From IMG/VR virus record IMGVR_UViG_2563366883_000017: a stretch of DNA of 38,859 nucleotides; one strand, given 5' to 3'. Source of the DNA: a virus. Lineage: Duplodnaviria; Heunggongvirae; Uroviricota; Caudoviricetes. Positions 1,553-18,962 of this stretch are shown in pieces (within the stretch, counting starts at the first letter, position 1; each line of letters begins with the position of its first letter). The notes beneath the pieces were generated by a model. That model searched no databases. It was given only the letters and a program-made list of their open reading frames with translations, and had not been told where the DNA came from. Made by a program: the position numbers and the translations under genes.

Positions 1553-1753
1553 TCACGAGGACTGAAGTTTCTCGCAATTAAAATTTATCAGTTTTACTTT
1601 CTGCTCTCTGGAAACGCCTGCTTCTTTTTTACCTGAGAGCATTTTTTCGCATTCTGATTTCGTTAGTTTAGATTTTGAATATCTTGTCCAGTTAGTAGGA
1701 GTGCCACCTTCCTTTTCAATAGTGGCGGTAATTTTATACATGAACACCTCCAT
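1553..1753 (-). CDS. ydaC: Small Rac prophage protein YdaC-like (DUF1187)
   Basis: ORF MEVFMYKITATIEKEGG...; start chosen at ATG 1751-1753 rather than the upstream extension, which is the alternate frame of the ralR 3' end. Confidence 0.7.
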   Translation of the reverse strand: MEVFMYKITATIEKEGGTPTNWTRYSKSKLTKSECEKMLSGKKEAGVSREQKVKLINFNCEKLQSS

Positions 1754-1983: not shown

Positions 1984-2793
1984 TTATTCCTCTGAATTAT
2001 CGATTACACTGTATTCCCCGGTTAATACAGAGGAATCTGCAGGATCGATTGTCAGTGGTTCCTTTTCATCCATTGATACTGCACGCTGGATCTCAATTGA
2101 TACGGGCAGATATTTGAACAGGCGACGAATAGCCGTTTTCTTTGCCATTTCTTCCCAGTGAGTTACCCACGGCCCGTTATTACCAGCTTTACTCTGGCTG
2201 CGCACCAGCTCAATCTGTTTGCGCGTCATAACTTCAAACTGAGTACCTCCGTCTTTCAGTCTTGCGACAGCATAGACGTGGGTAACAGGGGCATCTTCGT
2301 TTTCTCCTGGGCGGTGTATTAACTTTTCATCAAGGCCAAATTCGAAATTAAACTCGTCACCTTCACGGACAACACGGGCTGACAGGCTGGCGATTTGACC
2401 TGAACGGCGAGCCAGATCAATCATGCCGCGATAGCCAATGATTAGCTGAACGTTTTTTTTACCGCTCTTTTCGTTTTTATTACCAAAAGGCAGTAAATAT
2501 GCATGACCGAGGGCGCTACCGGGCTCAAGTCCGAGCTGTGAACACTGTACGATTGCACTGACAAAACTCATAGTGTCACAGTTTCCTAACGCCGGAACTT
2601 TACGAATTTCTGTGGTGGCGATACGGATCATACGTTCAGCCGTCATATGGCGTGGAAGAGCTGCTGCCAGTTGCTCTTTCATTGATGGCTGGTTAATAAA
2701 ACTAATCACGTCGTTATTTTTAATTGCTGCTGGTGCACGGTTTCCCTGAGTTTTTTGCAGATCGGCTTTTGCGATTGGTGGTTGCTTAGTCAT
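1984..2793 (-). CDS. recT: Recombinase RecT (single-strand annealing protein), 269 aa
   Basis: ORF beginning [16 protein letters not shown]...; immediately downstream of recE with a 2-nt gap; classical recET pair of Rac. Confidence 0.9.
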
Positions 2794-5386
2794 TTGCATA
2801 TTCCTTAGCCCAGCGGGGCAGTGATAACGTCTTAATAGCTGGCCATTCATCGGTATTGAGGCAGTCAGCCAGGGTTCGCAGATTGCGGTGATATTCCAGC
2901 TGACCTGCCAGTTTTGCTTCTTCGCCCATCATGAAAATTTCAACCGGATAACGTCCGCATTCAATAGTTGTGCTGGCAACCAGAAAAACGAAAGTTGGCT
3001 GCACTCCAAACTGTGCTTCATAACCGTCACTGTAGAATGCATCCTGAACGTGATAGCGGTAGTCGTAATAAGCGGTTTTGAATCGTTGAATATCCGCCGT
3101 AGTTTTCACGTCCATGATCCAGTGAAATTCAGGGATAATTTTGTCCGGACGGCACCGACACAAAATTGCTGTTTCAGGATCTTCCCAGTAAATTGATGAT
3201 TCAGCGTGTCCGGCGCTTTCAACAAGCCATTGCCCCAGCGGCAAAGCCATAACGCTCTGATACATGAGTTCAATTTTCCGGCCTTCTTCGGCAGTGATAA
3301 CCGTTTTTCCTGTGCTTGCGCATTCCCTCAGAAACGCTTTCTCTTCTTCTTTTCCGGAGTTTGTCCGGCGGTTAAATTCAGGTGCTACGATAAAGCGGTT
3401 ACTGAATTCTTCCGGCTCAAGTACCCGGCAGTGGAAAGCGGTTCCTAAATCGAGCGTTTTTGTCTTTGTGGTGTCCACGGGGGCATTTTTACGCCACAAA
3501 TACAGTGCCGGAGTATCAGCAATGTCATCGAGCTGAGACTTACTGACACCGGGACCCGCGTGGTAATTCTCATTCGAAATTCCGTAATAAATACCTGGCT
3601 CTATGTCTTCTACGATTACGGGATCTGCGACTTCGCCAGTTTCATCACTGCAATCGCGATGCGGATCGCTGCCAGCATTCTCATTGTGCGGATGTTCAGC
3701 GCCTTCCATTTCCTCCGGATCATTTTCCTTAGCTTCAACCTGACTCTCTTCATCGAATGTTTCCTGGTATGTTGCGTCGCCCATCACCGCACCACAGTCA
3801 GGGCAGTTATCCCCGCCAGTCTGGCCGCAGGCATTGCAGGCTATTTCCGGTTCCTGTTGCACTACTGGCTCAGGTTGATTCATATCCGGGCTGGTTTTTT
3901 CCGTTTCTGGCTGGTTCTGGTACACACAATCGCGAGTCTGGATCCCCTTTACCCATTTCGGATCGTTCGGGTCGCTAATTCCGTCAACAAATTCACCACG
4001 TGATGCAGCAAGCAATTTATCGGCATCGACAGGATTTTTTGATGGAATGTTTTTCCGGGCTTCATGGAGTTCTGCCCGCAGTTCCTGATATTTCGCATCA
4101 ACAGAATTTACCTGTGACTGAGCATCCAGCGGCTGCGTGTCCTGATGATGTTCAGTTGCGTCCGGTTCCATTGTTTCAGCCTCTCCCTGTTCAACTGCCG
4201 TTGTTCCAGATGGTTGCGGTTTTTCTTCATCATCCTGTTTTCCTTCTTCTGTTACTCGCTGCGGCATCGGGGCAGAGGAGCGACCGCAGGCAATATCCAC
4301 GATTTCCGGATCAGGGTTGGCATGATCGGTTTCAGTCAGTACTTTGTTCAGATATTCAGTGACGTGCGCGGGGATGACCTCGATCCCAATTGGTGCTTCT
4401 TTTACGGACGCAACCACGATGGCGCGGGAATAATCCAGCCCGCCAGGCATGGTGATGAATTTGTCGCGGAAAACAGAAAAGGGCGGTTTATTTTCAGCGA
4501 TAATTTCCTCAATGCGTTTAGCGTGTGCCGGATGAAGGTTATAGATGTCCAGATCCATTGAACGGGCCAGTACGCCAGTGGCTACGTCCCGCGCCAGTGA
4601 CGTCAGATCGTGTACGAAACCTTCGCCGCGATCGGTGAGGTTTCCGCCGCCAGCATTAGCACCGGAAGCCGTGCGAGTGATGTGTGAAACACGATTACCC
4701 TTCATCCACTCTTTTGTCAGCAGTCCTCGATCGGTGTAGTCAGCGTTCAGGTATGCTTCGAAAAAAGCAGTTATCAGTCCCAGGTTTGAATTACCAGGAT
4801 TAGGGAAAACTTTGTCAGTGTCACGAACCAGTTTGTGGAGTTCGCGAATTTCCAGCGGGTCGAGCAGGCTGGTTTTGTGGGAAACAGCCAGGGCAGTAAC
4901 AGCCGGTAGTTCTTCAGCCCGAGCAATGTGTAATGCCTGGAGTCCGTCGCGTGAAACGTGCGTTACCGGTTTTTCGCTGCCGTGTTGAGCAAGCCAACGA
5001 ATGGGCAGTTCCTGGCCAGAAATTGGGAGTAGCATATTCTCCTCAATCTCAGTCATGTCTTCGCCGTTGACGTTGGTATTGCCTTGATAGTGAGCGTTGT
5101 CTGGTGCTGCTCCCGGTTTTAGTTCCCATGTCATGGAGTCTTTGCTGAGTTGATAGCGTTCACTCCAGGTAAAATCGATCTCACCTTCAGCGGGCAGGTC
5201 ATTAACGACAGGAAAATTCGTGGCAACAGCTTTAAAATAGCTGCTCAGTTTTTTACCTGACTTAACGATCAGGTAGTCCAGAGTGGCACAGGTCGATTCA
5301 AAATCGTTGCTTGCCCACAGGACGACGTCAGGTTCACCGGATGATTTTTTCGCTTTCCGTAACAGGAAGAGTGGTTTTGTGCTCAT
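2786..5386 (-). CDS. recE: Exonuclease VIII RecE, 866 aa
   Basis: 866-aa ORF directly upstream of recT on the same strand; length and context match Rac RecE. Confidence 0.9.
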
Positions 5387-5487
5387 TGTTTTTTAACCTC
5401 AACTCAGATTAAAATTCGTTTTGTTCAGTGAATGATCTTGCCGGATACACACTGTTCATAGCCTGCGCCATACGCAGGCTATTTCTT

Positions 5488-5763
5488 TCAGATTTCACCT
5501 TTTAATTTCATTGCAATTAGAGTTGCCAGAAATTCGGCTTTTTTTTCTGCGGGCAGATTCTTTCCGATATGCACCAGGCACATTTTTTTGACACCTTCAT
5601 CAAGTGTTTTTACGTTGCCTGATGGACCATCGATATCAACCACAGTGAATGGGGTTTCTTTATTTTCTGTTTTAATTACGTAGCCAATGCGCTTTCCTTC
5701 CAGATTCACCTCGTGAACAATGTCATCGGTAGTTACAACAGTGGCTTCATAATTGGTAATCAT
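5488..5763 (-). CDS. racC: RacC-like small protein, 91 aa
   Basis: ORF MITNYEATVVTTDDIVHEVNLEGKR...; position upstream of recE as in Rac. Confidence 0.75.
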   Translation of the reverse strand: MITNYEATVVTTDDIVHEVNLEGKRIGYVIKTENKETPFTVVDIDGPSGNVKTLDEGVKKMCLVHIGKNLPAEKKAEFLATLIAMKLKGEI

Positions 5764-5837
5764 GTTTTTCTCCTTAATTAAGGTTGAGCGAATACCTGCC
5801 ATTTCTGGCATAAATTCAGTTTCGAATAGTCAATTAA

Positions 5838-6008
5838 TTAAAGTTCATGTGCCATCTGGTCTTTTTCGGCACAAGCTTCACTGCAATATTTTCTCGGTTC
5901 GTCTTTTGATAAAATCCCGTGCATGAAGTGAAGCATTCTTTCAATAGCTTTGCTTTCTTCAACGTCTTTTTTGCAAAGGTGGTAAGCACATTTTATTTTC
6001 TTAGTCAT
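5838..6008 (-). CDS. ydaE: YdaE-like Cys-rich small protein, 56 aa
   Basis: Hand-translated from ATG at 6006-6008 on the minus strand: [56 protein letters not shown]; start overlaps the kilR stop. Confidence 0.7.
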   Translation of the reverse strand: MTKKIKCAYHLCKKDVEESKAIERMLHFMHGILSKDEPRKYCSEACAEKDQMAHEL

Positions 6009-6229
6009 CACCATGACTCCGCCTTTACAGGTAAACCATCACGACCGAGGAAGACTTTAATCATGCGGTCAGTAATGCATGTTTTTGTGGTCAGGTTACG
6101 AATATATAGTTTTCGCTTTTTAATATTGTTTGCCGAGGCAATATATGTCCGGCCTTCATGAAGAACATAATCGCCAGGAGTCACACACTGACGTGGTATT
6201 TCATCAGTTCCGAAGTGATGTGCAATCAT
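6008..6229 (-). CDS. kilR: KilR-like cell-division inhibitor, 73 aa
   Basis: [30 protein letters not shown]...; matches recalled Rac KilR; lies in the leftward early operon. Confidence 0.8.
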
Positions 6230-6670
6230 AATTATCTCCATTTTTACAAATGAACTTTGTTGATGCGGTGCCTGGTGCCTCCAGGTGACTGCAACCAGTT
6301 AACAATTACAGTCGGCTTTCCCACCCAAACCAATAAGGACTAACATGACTTTTAACTGTGCCACGTGCGCTTAGCCGCATTCACCGCATCACAAAATTCA
6401 CTTTAAAAAGGGCGGACATCAGCCGAACTTCAAGAAAAAAACTGATGCCGCCAGGACTACACACAGCAATGTCGTTATTTACAACCGGAGGCGCACTCCC
6501 ACCATTTAAATTTAACAGACAAGACCGACTCTTTATGGATATCGGAAATGCGCCTTCGTGTTGTGCCCGGTTTTATTTCACCACCTCCGGGCTTCGGTGG
6601 TCTCGGCTATACCCCTACAGCGAGAGCTTGTGTTAACATTTCAATACCCTTACAGTTGAGAGTTATTGAT

Positions 6671-7159
6671 ATGTTGGATGTATTTACTCCATTGTTGAAA
6701 CTTTTTGCTAACGAGCCACTCGAAATACTTATGTATACGATTATCATTTTTGGTCTCACTCTCTGGCTGATACCGAAAGAGTTTACTGTCGCATTCAATG
6801 CTTATACTGAAATACCTTGGCTCTTTCAGATTATCGTTTTTGCCTTTTCTTTCGTGGTCGCCATTTCCTTCTCAAGATTGCGAGCACATATTCAAAAGCA
6901 TTATTCATTACTACCAGAGCAACGAGTATTGCTTCGTTTATCTGAGAAAGAAATCGCTGTATTTAAAGATTTCCTTAAAACAGGAAATCTTATTATCACT
7001 TCTCCTTGCCGTAACCCGGTTATGAAAAAATTAGAACGGAAGGGCATCATTCAACATCAGAGTGATAGCGCAAACTGTTCTTATTATCTCGTCACCGAAA
7101 AATACTCCCATTTTATGAAGTTATTCTGGAACAGCAGGAGTAGACGTTTTAATCGTTAG
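6671..7159 (+). CDS. sieB: Superinfection exclusion protein SieB-like, 162 aa, membrane protein
   Basis: ATG at 6671 (MLDVFTPLLKLFANEPLEILMYTIIIFGLTLWLIP...); hydrophobic N-terminal segments; orientation opposite to the surrounding early-left genes, as in Rac. Confidence 0.8.
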   Translation: MLDVFTPLLKLFANEPLEILMYTIIIFGLTLWLIPKEFTVAFNAYTEIPWLFQIIVFAFSFVVAISFSRLRAHIQKHYSLLPEQRVLLRLSEKEIAVFKDFLKTGNLIITSPCRNPVMKKLERKGIIQHQSDSANCSYYLVTEKYSHFMKLFWNSRSRRFNR

Positions 7160-7311
7160 CTTACTGTGTGCTTCTCCAACCATCGGCGCGCACCAGTTTC
7201 GGTTTTAAATGTTTTGCTTTTGGTATACGTCATGGCAGTGAACGTTCCATCCTGGTTGGGGAACACGCCGCACACCAGGGATTCGTTGTTGCCGAGGTCG
7301 ATTTTTTGCAT
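7156..7311 (-). CDS. ydaF: Small Rac protein YdaF-like, 51 aa
   Basis: Hand-translated: MQKIDLGNNESLVCGVFPNQDGTFTAMTYTKSKTFKTETGARRWLEKHTVS; its 3' end overlaps the sieB 3' end by 4 nt (convergent). Confidence 0.6.
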   Translation of the reverse strand: MQKIDLGNNESLVCGVFPNQDGTFTAMTYTKSKTFKTETGARRWLEKHTVS

Positions 7312-7321
7312 TTTGCGAATC

Positions 7322-7456
7322 TCACATCTTGTTGCTGTGTATAGCGACTTCTGCCTGCCAGAGATCCCAGTCGTTGCTGCGTAAAGCCTGCACAGCCTGG
7401 TTGTAAGTGATACCGCAACAATCCATCAAATACTGAACTACTTCGTAATGCACCAT
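7322..7456 (-). CDS. ydaG: Small Rac protein YdaG-like, 44 aa
   Basis: ORF MVHYEVVQYLMDCCGITYNQAVQALRSNDWDLWQAEVAIHSNKM; first gene of the leftward early transcript next to the repressor region. Confidence 0.6.
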   Translation of the reverse strand: MVHYEVVQYLMDCCGITYNQAVQALRSNDWDLWQAEVAIHSNKM

Positions 7457-7624
7457 CTTATCTCTCCCCTTAACGCCGGGTGGCGGAACTGAAACCTGCT
7501 GCACTGCAAAATCTGAACCCTGCCGTCATGTTCATACGCCTCGGGCTGGCTACTTAACCCCTGACCACTGCCTGGTAACTCGAAGTATTGCCCTGCGTTC
7601 TGTGGGGCGGGGTGGGTTGGTAGG

Positions 7625-7675
7625 TATATAATGTACTTTGTGTTCATTGATGTAAAGTACTTTAAGTACATTTTG
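7625..7675. promoter_or_regulatory. Left operator/promoter-like region: three copies of ATGTACT / AAGTACT / AGTACAT and a TATAAT hexamer
   Basis: Direct reading: taggTATATAATGTACTttgtg...taAAGTACTTtAAGTACATttt; the same ATGTACT core recurs on the other side of racR (8191, 8215). Confidence 0.4.
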
Positions 7676-7746
7676 TGTGTAAAAAAATGAGATGGGATAA
7701 AGTGAAGCACAAACCCGGAGGGGGACGCTACCGGATTTATGCTGGT

Positions 7747-8166
7747 TTAAGAGGCTTTTTGTTTTTTCTTTCGTGCTAGCTCTTCGTAAATTGCATTGTA
7801 CTTCTGTTTTTTCTCCTCAAGAGTTTTTAAAAGTTCATCTGTCTCACTGTCAGGGAGCTCGTCCAGAAGGTCAATGATGATTTTTTGTCTTGGATTTAAC
7901 TCCTGATAGAAACGTACCTGTCCACTTTCTTCTGTATCCTCTCCCAAAAGATAGGTTGGTGTTGTTCCAATGAGTGTTGCTAATTCCCTTAATTTCTCTC
8001 GGCGAGGAATTGTTTCGCCATTAAACCATTTGCTAACCGCTTTTGGTGTTAATTTCATTCGACGGGCAATTTCTGCCTGCCTTCCATGTTGTTCATAACC
8101 AGCGTTTTCACAGGCTAGCGCAAGCCTACTGGCGAACTCTTTACGCGCTTTATCTTCATGAACCAT
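7747..8166 (-). CDS. racR: Prophage repressor, XRE-family helix-turn-helix, 139 aa
   Basis: ORF MVHEDKARKEFASRLALACENAGYEQHGRQAEIARRMKLTPKAVSKWFNGE... (HTH); divergent from the cro-like ydaS; flanked by repeated operator-like motifs. Confidence 0.8.
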   Translation of the reverse strand: MVHEDKARKEFASRLALACENAGYEQHGRQAEIARRMKLTPKAVSKWFNGETIPRREKLRELATLIGTTPTYLLGEDTEESGQVRFYQELNPRQKIIIDLLDELPDSETDELLKTLEEKKQKYNAIYEELARKKKQKAS

Positions 8167-8187
8167 AAGTTCAATGATATTCGCTCT

Positions 8188-8224
8188 TGAATGTACTGTC
8201 AGTTCTGTTATAGCATGTACTCAA
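8188..8224. promoter_or_regulatory. Right operator-like direct repeats ATGTACT (8191-8197, 8215-8221) in the racR-ydaS divergent intergenic region
   Basis: Direct reading: gaATGTACTgtcagttctgttatagcATGTACTcaaagttcacat; 24-bp spacing; between divergent repressor and cro-like genes. Confidence 0.45.
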
Positions 8225-8245
8225 AGTTCACATTGTGAGGGTGAT

Positions 8246-8500
8246 ATGAACCAGAAAACACTTGAAGATGTAATCAAAACTGTTCGCGTTTCTGTTGTGG
8301 CCGACGTTTGTGGTGTCAGCCAAAGAGCAATCTACAAATGGATGGATAACGGAAAATTGCCTCGCACAGAATATACCGGCGAAACAAATTACGCTGAAAA
8401 AATCGCTCATGCATCAAACGGATTATTTTCTGCTGATGTAATTTTAACTATTGGCAGAAATAAAACTACTACGAAAAAGCTGATGGGAGTTGATTCATGA
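8246..8500 (+). CDS. ydaS: Cro-like / YdaS-like small DNA-binding protein
   Basis: ATG at 8246 (MNQKTLEDVIKTVRVSVVADVCGVSQRAIYKWMDNGKLP..., HTH-like); divergent from racR; stop overlaps ydaT start (ATGA). Confidence 0.7.
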   Translation: MNQKTLEDVIKTVRVSVVADVCGVSQRAIYKWMDNGKLPRTEYTGETNYAEKIAHASNGLFSADVILTIGRNKTTTKKLMGVDS

Positions 8501-8919
8501 AAATCAAGCATGAGCACATCGAGTCAGTGTTGTTAGCCCTGGCAGCCGAAAAAGGGCAGGCATGGGTAGCCAATGCCATTACTGAAGAATATCTGCGCCA
8601 GGGGGGCGGCGAATTGCCCCTGGTACCAGGCAAGGACTGGAATAATCAGCAGAATATCTATCACCGTTGGTTGAAAGGTGAAACGAAAACGCAAAGAGAA
8701 AAAATTCAGAAGCTGATCCCAGCAATTCTGGCAATCCTTCCGCGCGAGCTGCGTCACCGACTCTGCATCTTCGATACCCTGGAACGCCGTGCATTACTGG
8801 CGGCGCAGGAAGCGTTAAGTACGGCAATTGATGCGCATGATGATGCAGTCCAAGCCGTTTACCGGAAAGCGCATTTCAGCGGCGGCGGGTCTTCCGACGA
8901 TTCTGTCATTGTTCATTAA
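8497..8919 (+). CDS. ydaT: YdaT-like protein, 140 aa
   Basis: ORF MKIKHEHIESVLLALAAEKGQAWVANAITEEYL...; translationally coupled to ydaS. Confidence 0.7.
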   Translation: MKIKHEHIESVLLALAAEKGQAWVANAITEEYLRQGGGELPLVPGKDWNNQQNIYHRWLKGETKTQREKIQKLIPAILAILPRELRHRLCIFDTLERRALLAAQEALSTAIDAHDDAVQAVYRKAHFSGGGSSDDSVIVH

Positions 8920-8931
8920 GCAAAAGTTTCC

Positions 8932-9789
8932 ATGCTGTTTGTGCTTATTCTAAGCCACCGGGCAGCATCATACGGGGCAATTATGGCCGCATTACCATAC
9001 ATGCAACTGTACATAGCTGATTACCTGGCTGACACCATGCATTTGTCAGCAGAGGAGCATGGTGCGTATTTGTTGCTGATGTTCAATTACTGGCAAACAG
9101 GAAAGCCAATACCTAAAAACAGGCTGGCAAAAATTGCCCGTCTGACTAACGAGCGATGGGCTGATGTTGAACCATCCTTGCAGGAGTTTTTTTGCGATAA
9201 CGGCGAGGAATGGGTGCATCTTCGGATTGAGGAAGATCTGGCATCAGTCAGGGAAAAATTAACCAAAAAATCAGCCGCAGGAAAAGCATCTGTTCAGGCC
9301 AGAAGAAGCAGAAAGGAAGCAGATGTTCAAACAAAACAAGAGAGAAATTTAACAGGTGTTCAAACAGATGTTGAAGTGGTGTTTGAACATGATGTCAACA
9401 CAAAGGCAACTAATAAAGATACAGATAAAGATCTAAAAACAGGTCCCCCCCTAAATCCCCCCCGGGGGAATCGAGGTGTCAAAAAGTTTGACCCTCTGGA
9501 TATTGCTTTGCCGAACTGGATTTCTGTCTCGCTTTGGCGTGAGTGGGTTGAATTTCGCCAGGCATTGCGAAAACCGATTCGAACGGAGCAGGGCGCTAAC
9601 GGGGCGATACGGGAGCTGGAAAAATTCCGCCAGCAGGGTTTTTCACCTGAGCAGGTGATTCGACACAGCATCGCCAATGAATACCAGGGCTTGTTCGCGC
9701 CGAAAGGTGTTCGACCTGAGACGTTACTCCGACAGGTTAACACCGTCTCGTTACCGGATAGTGCGATCCCGCCAGGCTTCAGGGGGTAA
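8932..9789 (+). CDS. ydaU: Replication initiation protein YdaU-like (DUF1376), 285 aa
   Basis: 285-aa ORF directly upstream of the DnaC-like gene; position equivalent to lambda O. Confidence 0.7.
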   Translation: MLFVLILSHRAASYGAIMAALPYMQLYIADYLADTMHLSAEEHGAYLLLMFNYWQTGKPIPKNRLAKIARLTNERWADVEPSLQEFFCDNGEEWVHLRIEEDLASVREKLTKKSAAGKASVQARRSRKEADVQTKQERNLTGVQTDVEVVFEHDVNTKATNKDTDKDLKTGPPLNPPRGNRGVKKFDPLDIALPNWISVSLWREWVEFRQALRKPIRTEQGANGAIRELEKFRQQGFSPEQVIRHSIANEYQGLFAPKGVRPETLLRQVNTVSLPDSAIPPGFRG

Positions 9790-9795
9790 CTGACC

Positions 9796-18430: not shown

Positions 18431-18962
18431 GGGCTGGTTTATTGTATGCCAAATGATTATTAAAAAGGTTGTGTTAATAACAAAATCCGAAATAATATGC
18501 CTGCATATTTTTATCTTGCTTATATTCTGCATATTGTGCATAGCAGGCTCATCCCTGCAATCAAAACTGTATGATGAGTATTTTTTGTTTTCCTTTTTTC
18601 CAGTCATCTGATGATGACCTGCTTCTTTTTAATCCGGATCGACATCAGTTTTTTAAGATAATTCCTGCGAGTTATATGCATAAATGCCACAAACTCCGCA
18701 TTTTATGTGGTTGGGAGTTGCCGGGCGCGCAGTGAGTTTGCTAAGAAAACTCCTGCATGGTGAATCCCCCTGTGCGGTGGGGTGATACCATTAACCTTTT
18801 CTGTCGCCGACAGGTATCACGAACATTTTGTTCACCGGGAGGCACCCGGCACCATGCACTTCAATAGATTCTCTCCACATTATGGATATTCTTTCAGAAT
18901 ATCCCACGCAGACTTTGTGTAAATGTTAACAAATGTGCGTTTTATTTGATCTGATTCGCTGT

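Follow-up and report, generated by a model that had tools for sequence, protein, structure and literature searches.

Does one repressor act on both sides of its own gene in this Rac prophage, in the manner of the OL/OR arrangement of lambda? The question was raised by a sequence-only reading of the locus, which found ATGTACT-type motifs at both ends of a repressor gene that it named racR and proposed that the repressor controls a cro-like rightward operon as well as a leftward kilR/recET operon. The window analyzed here, i.e. the whole stretch of 38,859 nt, is a Rac prophage integrated beside ttcA in E. coli strain 1428, to which NZ_CP023366.1 is 100% identical. We consider it probable, at roughly 85%, that the motifs serve as operators in an immunity cassette of the lambdoid type, which resides in this prophage in place of K-12 racR/ydaS. 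The evidence in favour of the OL/OR reading comes from homology and conservation and is not experimental. Its core idea of dual control is supported by comparison, while three details proposed with it had to be revised: what the repressor is called, what the repeat unit is and on which strand the promoter lies. The cassette and its two genes are the following.

7623-8490, no strand assigned: heteroimmune immunity cassette comprising PL/OL, the repressor gene, OR/PR and the cro-like gene
7747-8166, minus strand: repressor gene, 139 aa, with an HK022/933W-type helix-turn-helix (HTH) domain and a DicA-like C-terminal part
8246-8500, plus strand: cro-like gene, 84 aa, HTH, divergent from the repressor gene; first gene of the rightward operon, followed by ydaT (8497-8919)

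The repeats are half-sites of 17-bp pseudo-palindromes

All motifs of the ATGTACT type were recovered where they had been described, namely ATGTACT at 7631-7637, 8191-8197 and 8215-8221 on the plus strand with an inverted copy at 7665-7671, and AAGTACT at 7655-7661; the right-hand ATGTACT copies lie 24 bp apart. Over the 38,859 nt the 7-mer is not enriched (5 matches versus 3.5 expected), but four of the five matches fall inside 600 bp, a clustering that none of 2000 first-order Markov sequences reached. A repeat search extended the repeat unit to about 15-22 nt, and inspection of both strands resolved it as a 17-bp pseudo-palindrome, ATGTAC-N5-GTWCAT. The 7-mer direct repeat of the earlier description thus gives way to an inverted repeat with a variable 5-bp centre, and the three left-hand copies, although correctly placed, are not separate repeats: they are half-sites belonging to two such pseudo-palindromes. 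Matches to the extended pattern WWGTACTNNNNGTWC number 5 versus 0.07 expected, and the palindromic core GWAC-N5-GTWC occurs 6 times in 38.9 kb versus 1.27 expected, with five of these six matches at the two ends of the repressor gene; within 600 bp, random sequences held a maximum of 2 cores. The same motif flanks the repressor gene with two sites on the left and three on the right, all of them GWAC-N5-GTWC, and the two clusters are 560 bp apart.

7631-7647, no strand assigned: OL1, ATGTACTTTGTGTTCAT, in the spacer of the leftward promoter and overlapping its -10; aligns with the HK022 site ATGAACTTTAAGTACAT
7655-7671, no strand assigned: OL2, AAGTACTTTAAGTACAT, 24 bp from OL1, overlapping the first 2 bp of the leftward -35; aligns with the HK022 site ATGTACTATTGGTACTT
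8158-8174, no strand assigned: OR3 candidate, minus strand reading TTGAACTTATGGTTCAT, with the repressor start codon at its centre
8191-8207, no strand assigned: OR2, ATGTACTGTCAGTTCTG, filling the spacer of the rightward promoter, 33 bp from OR3; aligns with the HK022 site CGGAACTGATAGTACAG
8215-8231, no strand assigned: OR1, ATGTACTCAAAGTTCAC, 24 bp from OR2 and covering the predicted PR start; aligns with the HK022 site GTGAACTTATGGTTCAT

Both the OL1-OL2 and the OR1-OR2 pair are thus spaced by 24 bp. The site at 8158-8174 was missing from the earlier description. It is a weaker site with two mismatches to the consensus and a perfect core, and it ranks 6th of about 38,800 positions when scored with a matrix made from the other four sites only; HK022 has a site at this position and a 933W-type record annotates OR3 there. 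Scanning the window with the core and with the matrix gave no third left-hand operator above background, and an HK022-like extra site downstream of cro was not found in the GWAC-N5-GTWC core scan.

Predicted divergent promoters are overlapped by the sites

The promoters and the hairpin listed below are all predictions.

7628-7656, minus strand: predicted PL-like leftward early promoter, -35 TTTACA (7656-7651), 17-bp spacer, -10 CATTAT (7633-7628); promoter scan, 9/12 match
8187-8214, plus strand: predicted PR-like rightward early promoter, -35 TTGAAT (8187-8192), 16-bp spacer, extended -10 TGtTATAGC (8206-8214); read from the sequence
8174-8202, minus strand: predicted PRM-like repressor promoter, -35 CTGACA (8202-8197), 17-bp spacer, -10 TATCAT (8179-8174); scan 10/12
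7706-7743, minus strand: hairpin, probable terminator, just past the repressor stop codon, between the repressor gene and OL/PL

On both sides of the repressor gene, operators overlap the predicted divergent early promoters. The start of PL is predicted near 7621, at the cassette boundary, and both of its hexamers recur at the same positions, as TTTACA and CAT(T/C)AT, in HK022 and in Citrobacter phage Omnitron. The TATAAT hexamer that had been pointed out next to the left-hand repeats is indeed present at 7627-7632, but on the plus strand, i.e. the wrong one for a leftward operon, whose -10 is the CATTAT of the other strand paired with TTTACA. As a plus-strand promoter TATAAT was rejected, as it has no matching -35 and was not called by the scan; it is the mirror of the leftward -10. 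The -10 of PR, TATAGC, is weak, and because its final T is absent the strict promoter scan did not report it; the predicted promoter aligns gap-free to TTGACT-16-CATAAT of HK022. The -10 of PRM aligns with TATAGT of HK022, the hexamer to which the loopometer supplement gives the label 'PM -10'. From the predicted PRM, transcription would start at or beside the repressor ATG and yield a leaderless or near-leaderless mRNA. The predicted -35 of PRM lies inside OR2, which does not fit lambda-style activation.

The hairpin at 7706-7743 has a folding energy of -19.4 kcal/mol (z = -5.6; 0 of 200 shuffles as stable), and among natural variants its stem is kept while the loop bases vary. It was not called by the simple terminator scan, and is probably a terminator which separates the repressor gene from OL/PL.

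Left-hand half-sites are conserved and their centres are free to vary

Natural variation was assessed in 80 IMG/VR loci with a 99-100% identical repressor, together with phage Tritos and an 88%-identical prophage, which yielded 41 distinct versions of the left region; the counts that follow are of variants and not of independent events. Among these 41 variants, 5 of the 24 half-site columns vary, with 11 minor-allele cells in total, as compared with 9 of the 10 N5 spacer columns and 63 minor-allele cells, and the leftward -35 and -10 hexamers are almost invariant. For the right region only 17 variants were obtained, with too little variation for conservation to inform. Phage Tritos and the 88%-identical prophage carry the same five sites with other spacers at the same positions, and homologous sites are found in Citrobacter phage Omnitron, Klebsiella phage Kp4864-1 and HK022. 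Fixed half-sites with free centres is the pattern expected of a site for a dimeric protein over a promoter.

These data bear on a reading in which the motifs are chance matches in AT-rich intergenic DNA or form part of a hairpin-forming inverted repeat that acts free of protein. The lack of window-wide enrichment of the bare 7-mer and the 9-bp inverted repeat that the left sites make up would both be in line with it. Such a reading is scarcely credible in view of the clustering described above, of a conservation pattern that is that of a dimeric protein site and not of a hairpin, and of the homologous sites which are annotated as operators in a 933W-type phage.

The cassette replaces racR/ydaS of K-12

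The flanks at 6000-7622 and 8491-10500 are 99% identical to K-12 Rac, and blastn against the K-12 prophage gave no match between them, which places the cassette boundaries at 7622/7623 and 8490/8491. The 868-bp cassette stands where K-12 Rac has a 1059-bp racR/ydaS cassette; on the left it ends at the start predicted for PL, and on the right just short of ydaT. A megablast comparison with K-12 covered only the shared leader.

The repressor gene sits at the racR position of a Rac prophage at ttcA, and its sites might accordingly be taken for those of the RacR protein known from K-12. However, the repressor shares only 12 of 33 aligned residues with K-12 RacR (158 aa), and the cro-like protein shares 6 of 18 aligned residues with K-12 YdaS (98 aa). 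The operator of K-12 RacR was determined by footprinting as TTAGGC-n3-GCCTAA (PMC9638921); this motif is absent from the cassette, with one chance-level match in the window (20273), and conversely K-12 Rac contains no GWAC-N5-GTWC. Orthology with K-12 RacR and YdaS was rejected on these shared residues and the reciprocally absent motifs, the gene name racR was dropped for the same reasons, and we regard binding of the sites by a RacR of the K-12 kind as next to impossible. Since the K-12 RacR motif is absent here, an EMSA with purified K-12 RacR, as opposed to the repressor encoded in this cassette, would fail. A gene annotated 'racR' at the Rac position can hence be an unrelated repressor with other operators, and results obtained with K-12 RacR do not transfer to it.

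Apart from its chromosomal position and the near-identical flanks, the K-12 cassette also shares its logic with the present one: its repressor is a short HTH protein that is not cleavable and is expressed from a leaderless promoter, an operator lies across the repressor start codon, and a cro-like gene diverges from the repressor gene (PMC9638921); the differences are that the proteins are unrelated outside the HTH and that the operator is of the type given above. In K-12 Rac, sites of the form TAGGC-N3-GCCTA are located on both sides of racR. Two of these RacR-type sites (4181 and 4206 of the K-12 Rac sequence, L001) lie around a near-consensus leftward promoter, TTGACA-17-TATAGT, past the 3' end of racR and thus at the place equivalent to that of OL/PL. 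The operator type changes with the repressor on both sides in both cassettes, and among the internal arguments for the OL/OR reading this one carries the most weight. The K-12 and the present cassette appear to be heteroimmune alternatives.

An HK022-type DNA-binding domain with a DicA-like end

The repressor (WP_000233320.1) has a 100% identical counterpart in the 'CI repressor' of phage Tritos, a phage for which a literature search gave no match. Over its HTH domain it is 47% identical to HK022 CI (residues 4-102) and 51% to the 933W-type cI, and in the repressor alignment the recognition helix PKA(V/I)SKWFNGE is conserved with SKWFN invariant. Among solved structures the sole match was a weak one to the N-terminal domain of P22 C2. 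The Pfam search returned HTH_3 only and no match to Peptidase_S24, thus no autocleavage domain. The C-terminal 50-60 residues match NCBIfam DicA (NF007257) and phrog_5736, and in the alignment the protein ends after this 60-residue DicA-like segment, whereas the repressors of HK022, 933W, Kp4864-1 and Omnitron possess an S24-type C-terminal domain. The cro-like protein is 62% identical to HK022 Cro (E = 2e-34).

The correspondence with HK022 extends to the sites. Its half-sites are the same, (A/T/G)TG(T/A)AC-N5-GT(A/T)CA(T/C), and so is the geometry, with 24 bp between OR1 and OR2, 33 bp between OR2 and OR3, OR3 on the repressor ATG and an OL pair spaced by 24 bp; the HK022 operator positions are those of a motif scan performed in this analysis combined with statements in PMC8053113. 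The PL hexamers are likewise the same or nearly so (TTTACA, then CATTAT or CATCAT). HK022 differs in its CI, which has 235 aa and a LexA/CI-type autocleavage/oligomerisation domain as compared with 139 aa and a DicA-like end here, and in its neighbouring genes (cII/O/P and nun, as compared with ydaT/ydaU and ydaG/ydaF/kilR/recET). It also has an extra site downstream of cro (2163-2179 of the HK022 sequence, L088), which agrees with the 'operator 300 bp downstream of OR' described in PMC8053113; the present cassette has neither a counterpart of this site nor a third left site. Judged by its sequence, this is a lambdoid immunity region of an ordinary kind, with operators of the HK022 type. We conclude that the repressor would work like CI(HK022), yet not as a full member of that protein family because it is without a LexA/CI-type C-terminal domain.

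In the 933W type (GQ499361), OR1-3 and OL1-2 are annotated as repressor binding sites. This type shares the core G(T/A)AC-N5-GT(A/T)C, the 24-bp spacing of OR1 and OR2, an OR3 that overlaps the cI ATG and the presence of only two OL sites; it differs in the outer half-site bases (CGTAC versus ATGTAC here), in the recognition helix (SSKGVSKWFNAE versus TPKAVSKWFNGE here), in a cI with an S24-type C-terminal domain and in a kinase gene between cI and OL. A further relative in arrangement is paaR2/ydaS/ydaT of CP-933P (E. coli O157:H7), where OR and PL/OL analogues flank the repressor locus and, in reporter assays, both answered to the repressor as well as to the Cro-like YdaS (PMC8630535). CP-933P is a cryptic Rac-like prophage and differs in its PaaR2 repressor, its repeat consensus GTTTAGTAA and a toxin-antitoxin pair that is co-transcribed with the repressor. 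DicA of the Qin prophage is also short (about 135 aa) and without a cleavage domain, and its C-terminal 50 residues are homologous to those of our repressor (NF007257 positions 83-132). Scored over its whole length, our repressor reaches 56.8 bits, below the DicA family cut-off of 101, with a good match in the C-terminal part only, and its DNA-binding domain is HK022-type.

What is mildly unusual is that HK022-type operators and an HK022-type DNA-binding domain go together with a C-terminal part that is DicA-type and not cleavable. This combination may reflect a natural chimera in which a DNA-binding domain of HK022 specificity, together with HK022-type operators and Cro, was joined to a DicA-type C-terminal part devoid of an autocleavage site, a possibility that we put forward tentatively and hold to be rather doubtful. 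If its specificity does equal that of HK022, such a chimera would show that the induction signal was swapped without a change in operator specificity.

A CI-type C-terminal domain mediates cooperativity and looping in lambda and HK022. As the present repressor does not have this domain, cooperative use of the 24-bp pairs is an assumption. The same consideration enters into a reading in which the left sites have no promoter of their own and act solely as auxiliaries that reinforce repression at OR by looping to it. Cooperative binding of HK022 CI to neighbouring operators and looping between OL and OR have been reported (PMC8053113), and the distance of 560 bp between the clusters has been counted in favour of this proposal. 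We nevertheless hold it to be improbable: the 9/12 promoter match lies exactly between and over the left sites, the PL hexamers are conserved like the half-sites and are common to HK022, whose OL controls the leftward lytic operon (PMC8053113), K-12 Rac has its leftward promoter at the equivalent place, and the oligomerisation domain on which looping by CI relies is missing from the repressor.

The leftward operon and the proposed mechanism

The left operators are presumed to control the following operon, whose genes are given as RefSeq annotates them in the identical record (L002; subtracting 1551 from its coordinates gives those of the window).

1984-7456, minus strand: leftward operon, presumed under PL, with ydaG 7322-7456, ydaF 7156-7311, kilR 6008-6229, ydaE, racC, recE 2786-5386 and recT 1984-2793

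The compared part of the left arm, 6000-7622, includes ydaG to kilR and shows 99% identity to K-12, where silencing of racR raises ydaS/T as well as ydaG, kilR, ydaE, racC, recE, recT, xisR and intR (bioRxiv 10.64898/2026.09.06.749655). Read-through from PL to recET, which we infer from these K-12 data only, would make the whole arm subject to the repressor. In the mechanism that we infer for the cassette, and to which binding as such, cooperativity, the exact transcription starts, the reach of the leftward transcript and the induction signal all belong, dimers of the 139-aa repressor would recognise ATGTAC-N5-GTWCAT through the HK022/933W-type helix-turn-helix. Occupancy of OR1 and OR2, 24 bp apart centre to centre, would block the rightward promoter of the cro-like/ydaT/replication operon, and occupancy of OL1 and OL2 at the same spacing would block the leftward promoter reading into ydaG, ydaF, kilR, recE and recT. 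The weaker OR3, which covers the start codon of the repressor gene, probably keeps synthesis of the repressor from the leaderless promoter in check, and the Cro homologue presumably binds the repressor's sites. No LexA box that could drive an antirepressor is present in the window.

How far the leftward transcript extends is the point on which another reading differs. Here, both operators and PL exist, but transcripts from derepressed PL might stop before kilR/recET, or those genes might have a control of their own, such that the repressor governs only ydaG and ydaF on the left. Transcription of the left arms of HK022 and lambda depends on antitermination. The search of the PL leader for an N/nut- or put-like element was negative, with no Rfam match and a fold no better than shuffles (z = +1.36), and sieB (6671-7159) lies within the left arm on the strand opposite to the operon, hence antisense to it; both points have been counted for early termination. 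On the other hand, a simple scan gave no strong minus-strand terminator between 7620 and recE, and the left-arm genes rise together upon racR silencing in K-12, from which this arm hardly differs over the part compared. We thus regard a short leftward transcript as unlikely and favour control of the complete arm through OL and PL.

Distribution of the cassette

The operators swap with the repressor, the boundaries of the exchanged segment are defined and the cassette occurs in varied flanks, which are the characteristics of a module exchange. Complete E. coli genomes that carry at least 80% of the stretch 7450-8520 number 1047 of 5426 (~19%), and the analysis thus provides a precise, predicted operator and promoter map for a cassette present in about a fifth of them, which would govern the toxic genes kilR and ydaT and the recombination genes recET. 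If its specificity is that of HK022, these genomes would carry an SOS-insensitive immunity to phages of HK022 immunity. Conceptually, the arrangement adds nothing new to the lambda/HK022 paradigm. The cassette was found in all 61 IMG/VR loci with full flanks, while Rac flanks surround it in only 27-29 of the 61; it also sits in other phage backbones, and in phage Tritos and one further locus (L006) it is located upstream of dicF/dicB.

An apparent OL/PL region in K-12 Rac and the PL leader

The Rac prophage of E. coli K-12 MG1655 carries the racR/ydaS cassette at the same Rac position, and a pair of sites resembling the RacR operator (TTAGGC-n3-GCCTAA; PMC9638921) is found there:

K-12 MG1655 Rac (L001) 4177-4218, between ydaG and racR: RacR-type sites TAGGTAATGCCTA and TAGGCTATGCCTA, 25 bp apart

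The two sites flank a near-consensus leftward promoter, TTGACA-17-TATAGT, and both the pair and the promoter are located past the racR 3′ end. Judged from its sequence, this region looks like an OL/PL, and the RacR literature that we found treats only the racR-ydaS intergenic region.

The leader downstream of PL, the predicted leftward early promoter of the window, spans window 7457-7621 and shows 95-99% identity across Rac prophages with differing immunity cassettes (K-12 and the window), and phage Tritos likewise carries a closely resembling sequence downstream of PL. The leader had no match in Rfam and did not fold better than shuffled sequence (z = +1.36).

The same cassette with other cargo

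The immunity cassette of the window also occurs in phage Tritos and at the E. coli OkiPb01694 locus, where it lies upstream of a division-inhibitor arm, dicF/dicB, whereas the window carries the kilR/recET arm. Since the cassette is found next to either arm, the same repressor-operator set would govern differing toxic cargo in different phages.

Small RNAs and operator-like sites outside the immunity region

Rfam matches in the window include the following, the first of which adjoins ralR:

1557-1735 (+): RalA, the antitoxin sRNA to the toxin RalR; 225 bits, intact
18725-18911 (+): sRNA STnc100
38618-38816 (+): IS009

Beyond the immunity region, the top operator-like site, ATGTAGTGTTTGTTCAT (window 16434-16450), has one core mismatch, is located within a DUF1133 gene and is probably a chance match. 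Apart from the predicted operators, the window contains a single perfect GWAC-N5-GTWC core, at 18821-18833, and it falls within the STnc100 match. HK022 possesses a perfect-core site immediately past the cro 3′ end (L088 2163-2179), in agreement with a report of an operator some 300 bp downstream of OR in this phage. The window cassette lacks a counterpart of this site.

Hairpin and gene starts of the cassette

Past the repressor stop codon, a hairpin (window 7706-7743, −) keeps its stem among natural variants while its loop is variable; it was not called by a strict terminator scan. Half-site-like hexamers open both divergent genes:

8246-8251: start of the cro-like gene, beginning ATGAAC
8158-8166: start of the repressor gene, beginning ATGGTTCAT, the centre and right half of predicted operator OR3

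The N-terminal MV(H/Q) is conserved in all related repressors.
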